11,318 bases of DNA, from IMG/VR virus record IMGVR_UViG_2778261301_000003, positions 1 to 11,318 of that record; one strand, 5' to 3'. A program made the position numbers and the translations under genes. Below, in pieces: positions 407-10,108 of the stretch. Below the pieces are notes generated by a model. The model had not been told where the DNA came from, did no database searches, and worked only from the letters and a program-made list of their open reading frames with translations. The stretch's first letter is position 1, and every line of letters starts with the position of its first letter. Origin of the DNA: a virus. Lineage: Duplodnaviria > Heunggongvirae > Uroviricota > Caudoviricetes.

Positions 407-697
407 TCATTGCCTTACCTCCATAAGCGCCCTATTAATAAACGCCGTCATTGGATTTGCACATCCCCACCCCGTACCATCTGGATTTCTTTTAATTGGC
501 TCCTTCTTCACTTTGCGTTTTGCATAAATAACCGTCTTCCACTTACGCTCAACAACACTCAAATGCCCTTGTTTCACCATATGCCTTGCTGCTTGAGCGA
601 TTCTGTTATTTGGTATTCCTGTGATCAGTGCTAATTCATGTGGGGAGAATTGTTCATGAGTTTTCAGATATTCCAGGATGATTTCTTTTCCAGTCAC
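407..697 (-). CDS. ren: Ren-like protein (96 aa)
   Basis: Same length as lambda Ren and a similar N-terminus (MTGKE.II.YL.TH...) from memory; located immediately downstream of the replication genes, with its start overlapping the upstream gene's stop (694-697). Confidence 0.55.
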   Translation of the reverse strand: MTGKEIILEYLKTHEQFSPHELALITGIPNNRIAQAARHMVKQGHLSVVERKWKTVIYAKRKVKKEPIKRNPDGTGWGCANPMTAFINRALMEVRQ

Positions 698-3168: not shown

Positions 3169-3885
<717 letters not shown>

Positions 3886-3892
3886 CACGTAA

Positions 3893-4330
3893 ATGATTAA
3901 AGAACGTATTTCTTATATCATTCCGATTGCGATGGATGAAGGCAACCCCGTAACTCCAGTTCTTATCTATGAAATGGATAAAGACTCCCATGAAGTGGAT
4001 CTGTCATTTGGCGCTTTTTTTATCGGCCTTAAGGCTACAAAAAAATATTCCATAGGCATTGAGGTTTTCAATGCTCAAGAAATACCGATACCAATTGACA
4101 CAAAACTGTACTCCAACCATAAGTTTTTTACGGTAGCAGAAGCCAACGATGGAGAAACCATCGTATCAACTTCTATGAGAATTAACTTCCCAAGGGTGAA
4201 AATTATCAAGCCTGGGATATTCGAAGTTAGAGCATCACTGGTTAATCCTGAGAAAGGCGAAGTAATTGATGTAAAAAGTTCGTTTTTTGACGTGAAGATA
4301 ACAGGATCAGTTCGCGATGAGTTTAGATAA
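3893..4330 (+). CDS. Hypothetical soluble protein (145 aa) in the rexA-equivalent position
   Basis: ATG 7 nt after the cI stop with no obvious SD, suggesting coupling to cI translation. No TM segment or signal peptide; hydrophobic/polar alternation suggests a beta-rich fold. Not RexA-like by size (145 vs 279 aa); no recognisable catalytic motif. Confidence 0.6.
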   Translation: MIKERISYIIPIAMDEGNPVTPVLIYEMDKDSHEVDLSFGAFFIGLKATKKYSIGIEVFNAQEIPIPIDTKLYSNHKFFTVAEANDGETIVSTSMRINFPRVKIIKPGIFEVRASLVNPEKGEVIDVKSSFFDVKITGSVRDEFR

Positions 4331-4688
4331 CAAGGTTGCTCAGCTTCGTCCAAATCAAAACATATCTCGCCCAATTGGACACTATTCCACTGATGATGCA
4401 TACTCTCGGCATGGTGGAGGAAACGGCGGAGGTAACATGCTTGAGGCTAGAGTTGCAAAGCTAGAGTCTGATGTTGAATACATCAAGCGCGATCTCGCTG
4501 AGGTAAAGTCAGATATAAAATCTGTTGATTCTCGTCTGTCAGGTATTGAGACAAGCATTAGCTCAGCAAAAACCACCATTAAGGCATCTGCGGTCGTTGT
4601 CAGTTTCGTGTTCGCATTTTGCGCCTACATTTTTGGAAGTTATGTATCCAAAATCCTTGATGCCTTAAACGGACTCGTTCTTAAGTAA
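4317..4688 (+). CDS. Hypothetical tail-anchored membrane protein (123 aa): Gly-rich N-terminus, coiled coil, single C-terminal TM helix
   Basis: ATG at 4317 overlaps the upstream stop (4328-4330). An alternative start at ATG 4437 with GGAGG 4 nt upstream would give 83 aa. Heptad-like segment LEARVAKLESDVEYIKRDLAEVKSDIKSVDSRL, then hydrophobic AVVVSFVFAFCAYIFGSYV. Architecture resembles XhlA-like or holin-like small membrane proteins (from memory, unverified). Confidence 0.6.
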   Translation: MSLDNKVAQLRPNQNISRPIGHYSTDDAYSRHGGGNGGGNMLEARVAKLESDVEYIKRDLAEVKSDIKSVDSRLSGIETSISSAKTTIKASAVVVSFVFAFCAYIFGSYVSKILDALNGLVLK

Positions 4689-4694
4689 CACACA

Positions 4695-4721
4695 ACCCGG
4701 CCTCAGTGCCGGGTTTTCTTT
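4695..4721 (+). terminator. Intrinsic terminator closing the cI operon (t-imm equivalent)
   Basis: Stem ACCCGGC/GCCGGGT (4695-4701 and 4708-4714) with loop CTCAGT, followed by TTTTCTTT. Confidence 0.7.
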
Positions 4722-4872
4722 GCCTCTCGATCCCCCCCTCCCAACAACACATAACCATTTGTATTTATTGGAAAACTAATAGATACAACTTGCTAAACAG
4801 TGCAATTCTGATCCCTCACCTACCTAACAATTCACCCCTGCAAAAAATAAATCCATATAAAAAACATACAGA

Positions 4873-4935
4873 TAACCATCTGCGGTGATAAATTATCTCT
4901 AGCGGTGTTGACACAAATACCACTAGCGGTGATAC
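4873..4935 (+). promoter_or_regulatory. OL operator cluster (OL3, OL2, OL1) with pL promoter reading rightward
   Basis: AACCATCTGCGGTGATA (4873-4889), TATCTCTAGCGGTGTTG (4893-4909) and TACCACTAGCGGTGATA (4917-4933) are lambda-type 17-mers. pL -35 TTGACA (4907-4912) and -10 GATACT (4930-4935), followed by the conserved ACATCAGCAGGACGC start region. Confidence 0.9.
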
Positions 4936-4981
4936 TAAACACATCAGCAGGACGCTGGAAGCCAAACGGAACAGATTGGCA

Positions 4982-5016
4982 TGCTCTTTAACTTCGATGG
5001 GGCGCTGACAAAGCGC
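4982..5016 (+). promoter_or_regulatory. nutL (boxA plus P22-type boxB)
   Basis: boxA TGCTCTTTAAC (4982-4992) and boxB hairpin GCGCTGACAAAGCGC (5002-5016) with a GACAA pentaloop, in the pL leader upstream of N. Confidence 0.7.
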
Positions 5017-5135
5017 AAACAGATACCAAACGAGATGGGTTTGGCGGTGATGTGAATTGCAGATGCAACGACAGCAACCAGAAGATCAGCACCTGGCGCA
5101 TCACCACCAAAGCCATTTCACATGAGGAAAACATC

Positions 5136-5444
5136 ATGACGGTAATCGTGTACGGAAAATCAACATTTGCAGGAAATGCCAAAACTCGCCGTCATGAGCG
5201 GCGCAGAAAGCTGGCTATCGAGCGTGATTCCATCTGCAACATCATCGATTCGATCTTCGGCACAGACAGTGAGGAAGATGTTCAGGAAGAACCGAGAAAG
5301 CGTTTAAGTCTTTCTGAAAAAGCAATATCACTCGGCATCATCAGTAAATCAAATACAGATGCGAATGGCGGAAGCGTTTGTTTGCCTGAAGTTGCACTGT
5401 ATGCTGCTGGTTACAGGTCAATGAAATCAATTACGGCGAGATAG
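5136..5444 (+). CDS. N: Antitermination protein N, P22 type (102 aa)
   Basis: N-terminal arginine-rich motif GNAKTRRHERRRKLAIERD matches the P22 N boxB-binding peptide (from memory). Start at ATG 5136 with AGGAA SD; the track's 130-aa ORF from 5052 runs into the nut leader and is rejected. Confidence 0.85.
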   Translation: MTVIVYGKSTFAGNAKTRRHERRRKLAIERDSICNIIDSIFGTDSEEDVQEEPRKRLSLSEKAISLGIISKSNTDANGGSVCLPEVALYAAGYRSMKSITAR

Positions 5445-5446
5445 AA

Positions 5447-5713
5447 ATGACTAGCAAACAAGTATCATATAAATGCTATTGCCCTTTATGTGGAAGAAAA
5501 TTCAGCGCCAAGGCAGCATGGAAGCATATCAATGATTATCATCCAAAAGCATCAGAACGTGAGTTGATGATGATAAGAGATGTAAAACGAGAAAAAATTT
5601 CTTTCGCAACAAAGCCACTAAACGCCAACAAAAACGCAATATTGTATCAAATGCATCGTTCAAGTGGTCCAGATTATTCTGGAGGGCTTCCATCTCTTGG
5701 AAAGAAAAAATAA
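5447..5713 (+). CDS. Small zinc-finger protein (88 aa), C2H2-like
   Basis: Motif C-x2-C-x11-H-x4-H (CPLCGRKFSAKAAWKHINDYH) near the N-terminus; starts 2 nt after the N stop; basic C-terminal tail. Confidence 0.55.
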   Translation: MTSKQVSYKCYCPLCGRKFSAKAAWKHINDYHPKASERELMMIRDVKREKISFATKPLNANKNAILYQMHRSSGPDYSGGLPSLGKKK

Positions 5714-5733
5714 CCACGCTCATGCTGGTTTTT
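5712..5733 (+). terminator. Possible weak intrinsic terminator (tL1-like) after the zinc-finger gene
   Basis: Imperfect hairpin AACCACGC/GCTGGTT (one bulge) with loop TCAT, followed by TTT, immediately after the stop at 5711-5713. Confidence 0.3.
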
Positions 5734-5846
5734 AATGACATAAATAACCGTATTTACTACCGCAAGCCACGCAGTGAAATGGGTGTGACTTGTGTTGGTC
5801 GCCAGAAAATGAAATTAGGCAGCAAACCACTTATTTGAGGTGAGAT

Positions 5847-6212
5847 ATGGAAGAACAAGCAAACAAGATTCTCGTAGAACTACTGCAAAAAGCCAGTAAT
5901 GGAATAGACGCGGCTGTTTCATTTAGCCAGGCACAGATTCCTGATGTCATCCATCAGCTTTTGATGTGGCACGCCGTATCATCAGCTGGAATTCAGGCTA
6001 TCTGTGTATTGGTGATTATAGCGTGTGTTTATCTGATGATTTTTGCATGGAATAAAGGAGATGATGCAGATATTGTTATTTTATCACTACTTGTCACATC
6101 AGGAATAGCGATTACTTCTATTGTTGTTTTCTTCAATTATTTCGACTGGCTGAAAATTTGGCTTGCTCCAAAACTTTACCTTATCGAATATGCCGCATCA
6201 TTGGTTAAGTAA
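5847..6212 (+). CDS. Small inner-membrane protein (121 aa, two predicted TM helices)
   Basis: GAGGTGAG SD upstream of ATG 5847; hydrophobic segments AVSSAGIQAICVLVIIACVYLMIFAW and IVILSLLVTSGIAITSIVVFFNYF. Confidence 0.6.
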   Translation: MEEQANKILVELLQKASNGIDAAVSFSQAQIPDVIHQLLMWHAVSSAGIQAICVLVIIACVYLMIFAWNKGDDADIVILSLLVTSGIAITSIVVFFNYFDWLKIWLAPKLYLIEYAASLVK

Positions 6213-6265
6213 TTTCATGCCGCATAGTCGGCCTTTATTTTTGGCATAAACAATATGGGGTAAAA

Positions 6266-6592
6266 ATGAAAGTTTTAATGGTTTATGAAAATGTTCCAGA
6301 GTCGACTGAAATCTATATTTTTGATGCCAATGAAGATGAAGTTAACGATTTGAAATTGTCTCACGGCAATTACACAAATGCTAATTGTGATGAAAGTATC
6401 GAAAAAGCACTATCACGTGTTCTTGTCAGAATTAGTGATCCAGAACATTGTGATGATGATTGGCTTTCTTATTGTGGAGCGGTAAAAACTGATGCAGGAA
6501 AATGGAGTAAAAGTAAAGTTGATAACTCAACTCCAATCATTATGAAAGATAGTGATATTGAAATGGTAATAATAACCGGAATGATTATGTAG
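6266..6592 (+). CDS. Hypothetical acidic protein (108 aa)
   Basis: ORF with a G-rich SD; about 21 Asp/Glu versus about 10 Lys/Arg by hand count; AT-rich codon usage typical of moron genes. Confidence 0.5.
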   Translation: MKVLMVYENVPESTEIYIFDANEDEVNDLKLSHGNYTNANCDESIEKALSRVLVRISDPEHCDDDWLSYCGAVKTDAGKWSKSKVDNSTPIIMKDSDIEMVIITGMIM

Positions 6593-6737: not shown

Positions 6738-7049
6738 ATGAAATTACGTGTCTGGCATATCCCGCAAGTACCTATGAAGCCGTTCATTGTAGAAGTGGCA
6801 AGTGTTGAAGAGGGTGTTCGCTTGATGGATGCACTGGCTGATTATGACGCCTTTCAGTATGACAACAACATCAAGCCTGACTACTGCAATGCTAACGGCC
6901 TTGAGATGTGGGATGAGAGCCTTACTGATGAAGATTTATCAGAGATGGAGCTTACGGATCGCTGGGTAGATTGGTACAGCGAATGCCAATGTTACGACGA
7001 CCCACGTAAATATATCGAAAGCCTGAAAGAAGAAACCTCAGCAGCCTGA
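6738..7049 (+). CDS. Hypothetical acidic protein (103 aa)
   Basis: Start chosen at ATG 6738 with GGAGG SD (track ORF starts earlier at 6684 without an SD); about 24 acidic versus about 10 basic residues; Cys pairs (CNANG, ECQC). Confidence 0.55.
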   Translation: MKLRVWHIPQVPMKPFIVEVASVEEGVRLMDALADYDAFQYDNNIKPDYCNANGLEMWDESLTDEDLSEMELTDRWVDWYSECQCYDDPRKYIESLKEETSAA

Positions 7050-7084: not shown

Positions 7085-8053
7085 ATGAGTGAAGTAACAG
7101 ACTTAGTTGTTATTGAAAAAGCAAATGCAATGACTGTATTTCAGTCTGCAGACCAGATTGAAGAAATTCTCCAAAAGGTTGAACGTGAAGTTATGTCCTT
7201 TGTGCCTGATATCACAACGGCAAAGGGCAGAAAGGAGATCGCTTCTCTGGCGTATAAAGTTGCGCAGACGAAAACATATCTCGATGGTCTTGGCAAAGAC
7301 CTTGTTGCTGAACTGAAGGAAATTCCAAAGCTAATTGATGCTAACCGCAAGACAGTGCGTGATCGCCTTGATGAGCTGAAAGCCAAGGCGCGCCAGCCTC
7401 TTACTGATTATGAGGAGGAGCAGGCACGGATTAAAGCCGAAGAAGAAGCTAAGGCAGCAGCCGAAGCTCTCGCAAAGCAAATTGAGTCTGACCATGAAAT
7501 AGCGATTTTGATGGATCGCGAATTTGACCGCCAAAGAGAAGAGGCAAGACTCAAAGCGGAGCAGGAAAAGCGAGAGCATGAAGAACGCTTAAAAAGAGAA
7601 GCTGAAGAGAAAGCCAGAGCTGAAGCCGAAGCAAAGGCAAAAGCCGAAATTGAAGCAGCAGCAAGGCGAGAAGCAGAAGCTAAGGCAGCAGCGGAACGTG
7701 CAGAGCGTGAACGTATTGAAGCCGAGCAACGAGCACAGCGCGAAGCAAAAGAGGCAGCAGAACGAGCTGAAAGAGAAAAGCATGCGGCAATTGAAGCAGA
7801 ACGTCGTAAAGCACAGGAGGAGGCTGAACGAATCCGGCGCGAGGCTGAAGCAAAAGAGCAAGCCAGAATAGCAGAAGAAAAAAGAATCAAGGACGAAGAA
7901 GAGCGTAGAGCAAAGGATAAAGCTCACCGGAAAGAAGTAAATAACAAAATACTGGCTGACCTTATCAAGGTTGGCGCATCAGAAGATGTTGCTAAAAATA
8001 TCATAACAGCCATCGTAAAAGGCGAAGTATTCGCAACAAAAATAACCTACTAA
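7085..8053 (+). CDS. Hypothetical protein (322 aa) with a long Ala/Glu/Lys/Arg-rich helical repeat region
   Basis: Strong SD AAGGAGG; N-terminal domain of about 115 aa, a central low-complexity A/E/K/R-rich segment of roughly 170 aa (TolA domain II-like composition), and a C-terminal domain of about 40 aa. Confidence 0.7.
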   Translation: MSEVTDLVVIEKANAMTVFQSADQIEEILQKVEREVMSFVPDITTAKGRKEIASLAYKVAQTKTYLDGLGKDLVAELKEIPKLIDANRKTVRDRLDELKAKARQPLTDYEEEQARIKAEEEAKAAAEALAKQIESDHEIAILMDREFDRQREEARLKAEQEKREHEERLKREAEEKARAEAEAKAKAEIEAAARREAEAKAAAERAERERIEAEQRAQREAKEAAERAEREKHAAIEAERRKAQEEAERIRREAEAKEQARIAEEKRIKDEEERRAKDKAHRKEVNNKILADLIKVGASEDVAKNIITAIVKGEVFATKITY

Positions 8054-9811: not shown

Positions 9812-10108
9812 ATGCCAGCGCCTCTGTATGGTGCGGATGACCCGCGCCGCTGTTCCGGCAATTCCGTATCGGAGGTGCTGGATAAATTCAGAAAAAACTA
9901 CGACCGGATAATGTCGCTACCGCAGGAAACGAAAGAGGAAAAGGAATTTCGCCATTGTATATGGCTTGCAGAGAAAGAAGAACGCGAGCGAATTTACCAG
10001 ACATCAATCCGACCATTCCGCAAAGCCACATATACCCACTTCCCTGAATATATCGACCCTCGCCTGCGTAATTACCGCTCACGCTATGGCGCTATCAGTA
10101 ATGACTGA
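9812..10108 (+). CDS. Hypothetical protein (98 aa)
   Basis: ATG-initiated ORF in the operon, weak AAGG SD; charged, Arg-rich, no recognisable motif. Confidence 0.45.

Follow-up and report, generated by a model that had tools for sequence, protein, structure and literature searches.

Textbook accounts of how RNA polymerase can be reprogrammed by a short, disordered protein draw on N and Nun of the lambdoid phages, both of which read an RNA hairpin by means of an arginine-rich peptide. Descriptions of Nun usually place it only at the N slot of HK022. Small early proteins such as lambda Ral and Rac Lar are also encoded near N in the pL operon, and the Ros/MucR family (PF05443) is known in bacteria for a DNA-binding finger of C2H2 type, which in Ros has a shorter Cys-His spacer and lies inside a larger globular domain. 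In Nun, the arginine-rich motif binds boxB RNA and the C-terminus, with its His and Trp residues, blocks RNA polymerase (PMC5386594, PMC4124055), while lambda N binds NusA AR1 (PMC7171158). HK022 itself needs no N and carries nun in the N slot (PMC9378689, PMC5386594).

The window analysed here, a stretch of 11,318 nucleotides, is a lambdoid prophage region that spans immunity and early-left functions and combines a P22-like left operon with a lambda-like immunity region. A lambda-like cI gene (3172-3885, plus strand) lies upstream of pL, and the minus strand carries cro, cII, O and a DnaC-like gene. A promoter scan placed pL at 4908-4936 (plus strand; TTGACA, a 17 nt spacer and GATACT), amid lambda-type operator repeats, as the sole sigma-70-like site within 4600-6300. 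Reading on from there along the plus strand, we found a nutL site (4982-5016) composed of a boxA-like TGCTCTTTAA (4982-4991) and a boxB hairpin GCGCTGACAAAGCGC (5002-5016), which we take to be P22-type. This is followed by the gene for a P22-type N antiterminator of 102 aa (5136-5444, plus strand), which matches Pfam PF25694 N_peptide over its full length (residues 1-102, E = 7.2e-36) and has GNAKTRRHERRRKLAIER as its arginine-rich motif. The N stop falls at 5444, and an ORF that encodes a zinc-finger protein of 88 aa (5447-5713, plus strand; ATG start) begins at 5447, leaving a gap of 2 nt.

Several other features of the window were noted along the way. Two overlapping plus-strand ORFs (3893-4330 and 4317-4688; PHROG 5893 and 6136, function unknown) occupy the rexA/rexB position after the lambda-like cI and are followed by a strong terminator (4694-4715); the second encodes a weakly XhlA-like coiled coil with, by eye, a hydrophobic C-terminal stretch, and the pair may be an exclusion or defence pair in place of rexAB. 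Further along the plus strand are homologues of P22 gp17 (6738-7046; superinfection exclusion; Pfam GP17, 2e-55) and of P22 Abc2 (9812-10108; anti-RecBCD; 4e-62), and between them a protein of 322 aa with a very high content of Glu, Ala, Lys and Arg (7085-8053; PHROG 1376, function unknown) that is probably a coiled coil. The several long ORFs that overlap the latter in other frames and antisense are probably artefacts of its biased composition.

The first-pass annotation of this DNA had described an 88-aa protein with the motif C-x2-C-x11-H-x4-H as the first gene directly downstream of N, and its coordinates, motif and placement all proved exact. The full pattern is C12-P-L-C15-x11-H27-x4-H32, with F19 at the position expected from the classical 'CxxCxxxF'. 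Translated in six frames, the window (134 segments, 10,623 aa) has no second such pattern, and shuffling the 88-aa protein yielded it in 139 of 200,000 cases. The protein is basic (pI 9.9). Codon differences between the gene and its relative at locus L020 were more often synonymous (37) than non-synonymous (28), so that the ORF is to be regarded as a real gene under purifying selection. Conservation of the Cys and His residues in homologues, on which the earlier proposal of a finger depended, was borne out: the pattern C-x2-C-x3-F-x7-H-x4-H was intact in 107 of 108 loci confirmed by tblastn, and in an alignment of 30 sequences that reaches down to 20% identity C12, P13, C15, F19, H27, I28, H32, L40, I43 and R44 were invariant and D45 and R48 were at least 90% conserved. 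Both the ligands and the tail peptide described below are kept down to about 40% identity, in several genera.

Structure prediction with AlphaFold2, which was poor with 4 sequences (pLDDT 49) and better with 30, gave the beta-beta-alpha arrangement of a C2H2 finger at a pLDDT of about 80. The predicted finger coincides with the invariant columns and takes up residues 9-32 (5471-5542, plus strand), with strands at 9-11 and 18-20 and a helix at 21-31 (pLDDT 82-85). It is followed by a second, basic helix at residues 37-50 (5555-5596, plus strand), which carries the family motif E-L-x-x-I-R-D-A-R-R in the version ELMMIRDVKR; taken together, finger and second helix were predicted at a pLDDT of 77-85. 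The remainder of the protein, residues 51-88 (5597-5710, plus strand), is predicted to be a disordered tail (pLDDT about 50), and a codon comparison with relatives showed that this tail ends in a conserved peptide, SGGLPSLGKKK (5678-5710, plus strand). In diverged relatives the peptide is held at the amino-acid level despite many synonymous codon changes, which rules out that the tail is conserved merely through its overlap with the A-tract of the terminator that follows. No other protein family among the loci examined carries this peptide, and fold searches returned no significant match. We infer that the protein binds zinc.

The only full family match of the protein was to PHROG 20899, a family of unknown function (E = 2e-64, 88 of 88 positions), and a PHROG scan gave, beyond this, only weak finger matches and no match to the Nun family PHROG 5632. 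Scans against Pfam, NCBIfam and the PADLOC library of defence systems returned nothing above threshold. The classical finger families scored 14.1 bits (zf-C2H2 PF00096; Pfam gathering threshold 25.2) and 14.9 bits (zf-C2H2_4; threshold 27), and the best single Pfam match was to the Di19 zinc finger PF05605 (E = 1.1e-3, residues 11-37), at 19.6 bits against a threshold of 27.5. The two have the CPxC...H-x4-H spacing and the 'HP..A' continuation in common; Di19 is a plant family, and the resemblance is one of pattern only. A profile built from the family itself matched designed consensus C2H2 fingers in the PDB (Aart at a summed E of 6e-9, 1MEY at 1.4e-5), in agreement with the earlier view of the protein as a C2H2-type finger. 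A Ros/MucR identity, which the annotation had singled out for an HMM search, found no support, as PF05443 was absent from the Pfam matches at E <= 10. We found no characterised homologue and no solved relative of the protein, and a literature keyword search for a zinc-finger factor of N or Nun type returned nothing relevant.

In its sequence, 'kCPxCGkxF...H...H', the finger is near the consensus 'YKCPECGKSFS' of the TFIIIA/Kruppel-type C2H2 fingers (PF00096; 1MEY, 2I13), with which it also shares the predicted beta-beta-alpha fold. The classical spacing is C-x2-4-C-x12-H-x3-5-H, whereas every member of the present family has a spacer of 11 together with H-x4-H. Unlike the classical proteins, moreover, these are of enterobacterial prophage origin, have a single finger rather than an array and carry an additional conserved basic helix.

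The end of the gene coincides with a weak terminator-like hairpin that overlaps its stop codon (5712-5733, plus strand). This was found by folding (AACCA-C-GC / TCAT / GC-TGGTT, then a T run; -6.7 kcal/mol, z = -2.2) and was not called by a consensus terminator scan. An intrinsic terminator that overlaps the stop codon directly follows every gene with the window's type of tail, and in relatives with the same tail this same place is occupied by strong canonical terminators of -11 to -14 kcal/mol. The order pL, nutL, N, finger gene, terminator puts the finger gene in the first, N-independent pL transcript, and the position of the terminator after it means that it is co-transcribed with N. The first-pass annotation had likened this position to the slot of lambda Ral, and the likeness holds in that the gene is the first after N; it fails in that the gene lies before the first terminator and not after it, between N and the terminator-like hairpin, in a slot that elsewhere holds a homologue of Nun.

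These elements belong to a mosaic module (4942-5853, plus strand) that comprises the transcript start, nutL, N, the finger gene, the hairpin and a relic of another N gene, and that is about 99% identical in many prophages, with flanks that differ on both sides. The relic, first noticed through the frameshift variant P0004, is a non-coding remnant of the 3' end of a lambda-type N (5743-5838, plus strand; in frame, with ..YYRKPRSEMGVTCVGRQKMKLGSKPLI and ..MGVTCVGRQKMKLGSKPLI each running to a stop) and aligns with the lambda-type N of locus L028 (BLASTP, 55% identity over 31 aa, E = 1e-9). A P22-type module of nutL, N and finger gene thus replaced most of an ancestral lambda-type N. A shorter relic (..SKPLI and a stop) in the prophage of E. 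coli ETEC4085 (L115) suggests an independent event.

In that same ETEC4085 prophage, the same N is followed at 2 nt by a gene for a 92-aa homologue of Nun (L115 2812-3090) in place of the finger gene, and this too stands before a terminator and the N relic. The homologue has an arginine-rich motif, SRNRRREARK, and the C-terminus VVNHAHQRNPKKKW, and it matches HK022 Nun by BLASTP (1e-10) and the 'Nun-like' PHROG 5632 (1.5e-29). At L028 both occur in a row, a lambda-type N being followed by a Nun-like gene (5682-5975), a finger gene with the window's tail and a terminator. Among 5,426 complete E. coli genomes, this N gave a match of any kind in 266 and was present at 80% or more of its length in 48; N and the Nun homologue were contiguous in 32, and the finger gene was found in 14, the counts of 48, 32 and 14 having been made separately rather than matched genome by genome. 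Strains W and UMNK88 are among the 32. In a comparison of prophages whose cassettes after N differ (the window at 5461 versus L114 and L115), the homology extended about 15 nt into the cassette ORF, and finger and Nun-like genes are alike at their 5' ends; this shared stretch points to a recurrent recombination junction.

A word-indexed protein search had returned only 7 clusters of near-identical E. coli proteins, and it was an exhaustive profile search that reached the wider family, whose members are roughly 50-90 aa long; the eukaryotic multi-finger proteins that this search also returned were set aside as motif matches and not relatives. Scans of viral contigs added 108 loci, 28 loci of the window's tail class having been found by way of the tail peptide and thus independently of the Cys and His residues, and two scans of species-representative genomes found no family member. 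By name, the sources include E. coli, Yersinia, Proteus, Pantoea, Kosakonia, Sodalis and Arsenophonus, and the only cultured phages with the family are Klebsiella phage phiKp_30, in which the tail is truncated, and an unannotated Wanchaivirus record. Across about 110 loci, the finger gene lies directly 3' of an N with an arginine-rich motif or is itself the first pL gene.

The members share a core, made up of the finger and the helix E-L-x-x-I-R-D-A-R-R, and end in one of three kinds of tail. The window's own class ends in ..SGGLPSLGKK(K/R), and in 27 of 31 cases is preceded, at gaps of 2-33 nt, by an N with a P22-like C-terminus, although the arginine-rich motifs of these N proteins differ. 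The short forms (48-60 aa) mostly begin 8 nt after N, and near-identical short forms were found after lambda-type and P22-type N alike, which led us to reject the idea that the finger co-varies with the type of N and which indicates that its target is not a particular N or boxB. In the remaining class the core is fused to the last ~25 residues of a P22-type N (CLPxVAxxAAGxRK..VTAR), a tail that differs from that of the window protein. Members with this fusion score 29.2 bits against Pfam N_peptide (threshold 27.9); their tail matches the last 25 aa of the window's N (BLASTP 4e-9) and the 'N-like' PHROG 271, and tblastn matches them to annotated N genes of Stx phages. Behind cI and pL these fused genes come first, and no arginine-rich N precedes them.

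At L029 (6010-6252 and 6302-6475) and also at L031, N is followed by a tandem pair of finger genes, the one with a GGLPSLGKKR tail and a terminator and the other a short form, which suggests that the tail classes are paralogues with distinct roles. Damaged copies were seen at P0003, P0004, P0007, L001 1689-1982 (phiKp_30) and L017. In some, a frameshift has garbled the CxxC stretch or the tail, and the others include the truncated tail of phiKp_30 and a C12F variant. The gene is dispensable in some lineages.

Where a fused member occupies the N slot, the leaders that were checked share conserved blocks with putL and putR of HK022. They contain a 4-bp stem that closes an AACGGC loop and has compensatory changes at three of its four pairs; pairing is possible in 95% of cells, as compared with 73% for shuffled controls and no more than 52% once the partners are slid. 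The stem was tested by naming it, and RNAalifold did not recover it. Rfam, which lacks families for nut and put, returned nothing of relevance for the leaders, and a blastn search of one put-like leader against phages returned no match. At L032 the cI and cro genes are HK022-like as well. Given that HK022 carries nun in its N slot, the put-like leaders place these fused finger proteins where nun sits. We had also considered that fused members in the N slot might serve as the sole N of nut-type phages, and rejected this on account of the put-like RNAs carried by the members checked, L032, L034, L038 and L043.

Put-like leaders with the AACGGC loop, the covarying stem and a GGCAAAACCCA block were seen in diverse prophages. 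They lie at about 1710-1790 and 440-530 (minus strand) in L032 and at 5860-5950 and 4530-4615 in L043; others are found in L034 and L038, downstream of cro, and in L046, L054 and L058. Some gene calls read the put region as a false N-terminal extension of the protein (..PEVAKPTF..). In L034, L038 and L039, some 90-170 nt ahead of the finger gene, the leader carries a further hairpin with compensatory changes (GGGGTGA..TCACCCC versus GAAGTGA..TCACTTC), after which come a CCC-GAGA-GGG hairpin and a boxA-like GTGTTCTTTAA; this element may represent a variant of putL or a site of nut type.

How, then, does the finger protein compare with the two known factors? Like HK022 Nun (PHROG 5632), it is small, basic and largely disordered and has a basic C-terminus (..GKKK, as against ..KKKW in Nun), and the same two slots serve for both, namely the N slot in phages of put type and, in N-type prophages, the interval from N to the first terminator. 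Unlike Nun, to which as to N the window protein has no detectable similarity, it carries a C2H2 finger and ends in another peptide, and it is missing both the arginine-rich motif and the C-terminal ..HAHQRNPxKKW arrest motif, so that the equivalence between the two is positional. With N of lambda and P22 (PF25694, PHROG 271) it shares a plan of recognition module, disordered linker and docking peptide; the N and finger genes adjoin and share a transcript, and the fused relatives carry the ~25 C-terminal residues of a P22-type N. The window protein differs from N, however, in that it has neither an arginine-rich motif nor an N tail, gives no match to N_peptide and no BLASTP alignment with the adjacent N, and is optional wherever N occurs.

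Our preferred reading, drawn from gene context and from the fused relatives and given a little less than an even chance, is that the finger protein is a modular factor directed at the elongation complex according to the logic of N and Nun. The fusion to an N tail, the nun slot in put-type phages, the alternation with Nun and the co-transcription with N are four independent lines that point this way, as does a build like that of N and Nun, in which a disordered linker lies between a small recognition module and a conserved peptide at the end. In such a scheme, the finger and second helix would take the place of the arginine-rich motif as a module that recognises nascent RNA, DNA or a host factor, and the flexible linker would join this module to the short docking peptide, whose partner would in turn be RNA polymerase or a Nus factor, with an acidic repeat of NusA as one possibility. 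The outcome might be the arrest or exclusion of rival lambdoid phages, as with Nun, or a boost to early read-through in the phage itself. What the protein targets, what its tail binds and in which direction it acts are conjectural in this scheme; the optional nature of the gene and its independence from the type of N favour a host or rival target over an obligatory N partner. The peptide LPSLGKKR resembles ILSLNRKPK of lambda N, which we take to be its NusA-binding residues, as well as VLSL(S/T)RKPK of the lambda-type N proteins in these loci, a likeness between short motifs that we offer as a lead. Unrelated accessory genes are known to accumulate in the region after N, and the sharing of a slot with Nun could be a coincidence. 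The lack of similarity between the window protein and N or Nun, the optional nature of the gene (14 genomes, as against 266 with this N), the damaged copies, the fold searches without a significant match and the weakness of the window's own hairpin also speak against the reading.

C2H2 fingers more often bind DNA, and the first-pass annotation had already raised a small nucleic-acid-binding regulator, which the data leave as a possible description. In its specific form, this would make the protein a sequence-specific DNA-binding regulator of early phage or host promoters, working by the logic of Ros/MucR or of eukaryotic C2H2 proteins and with no involvement of the elongation complex. The classical finger sequence with its predicted fold, the basic character of the protein and its place in the first transcript are what one would expect of such a regulator, but a single finger confers little DNA specificity, the protein has no match to Ros/MucR at E <= 10, and neither the N-tail fusions nor the alternation with Nun would be explained; we therefore judge it rather unlikely. 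The same fusions could instead mirror a physical partnership, the protein being a helper of N that acts as chaperone or stabiliser of the disordered, Lon-sensitive N or as a regulator of its translation, and the 2-nt gap and the common first transcript would fit this. Near-identical finger proteins nevertheless follow unrelated types of N, members occur in put-type phages that show no N in the N slot, and the finger gene was found in 14 genomes as against 48 with a full-length N and 266 with any copy, which makes a role as helper improbable.

Anti-restriction, or some other anti-defence function, was the other role that the first-pass annotation had suggested, the protein being a functional counterpart of Ral or Lar placed first after N, and it turned out to rest on position. 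Lambda and P22 do carry ral near here, Lar-family proteins are small and zinc-binding, the gene would be expressed early, and a Lar-family protein is annotated elsewhere in a related prophage. The finger protein, however, has no sequence match to Ral or Lar and matched no restriction-alleviation family in Pfam (E <= 10) or NCBIfam (E <= 0.1), its only PADLOC match was at chance level (E = 0.038), its gene lies upstream of the terminator, and the context of the family is tied to N and Nun and not to defence loci. We accordingly regard such a function as distinctly improbable, and context and fused relatives together suggest control of transcription elongation rather than restriction alleviation. 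That the ORF is in decay or without function, a leftover of recombination around N, might be suspected from the recombination scar with its lambda-N relic and from the frameshifted or truncated copies (P0003, P0004, P0007 and phiKp_30), but the excess of synonymous over non-synonymous differences and the conservation of ligands and tail peptide in several genera have already largely refuted it, and we give it very little credence.

Extending the preferred reading of a factor aimed at the elongation complex from the window protein to its relatives, the finger family may form a third class of lambdoid elongation factors beside N and Nun, with docking tails that can be swapped, a proposal that we consider possible but doubtful. 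The tail would be an N-type tail, the SGGLPSLGKK(K/R) peptide or none, and the window protein would come from the first pL transcript as a substitute for Nun, and by docking on RNA polymerase or NusA would arrest or redirect transcription of co-induced rival lambdoid prophages.

The fold and the proposed logic are each known, and it is their combination that is new. If the protein does act on elongation, a eukaryote-like C2H2 finger would represent a new way of targeting the elongation complex and would be among the very few uses of the C2H2 fold in bacteria or phages; if it does not, there is still a compact phage finger whose conservation extends to a C-terminal peptide. That either a Nun homologue or this protein fills the stretch from N to the first terminator also suggests a dedicated site for anti-transcription weapons between co-resident prophages; in E. 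coli strains with multiple prophages, such weapons would have a bearing on how Stx and other lambdoid prophages are induced.
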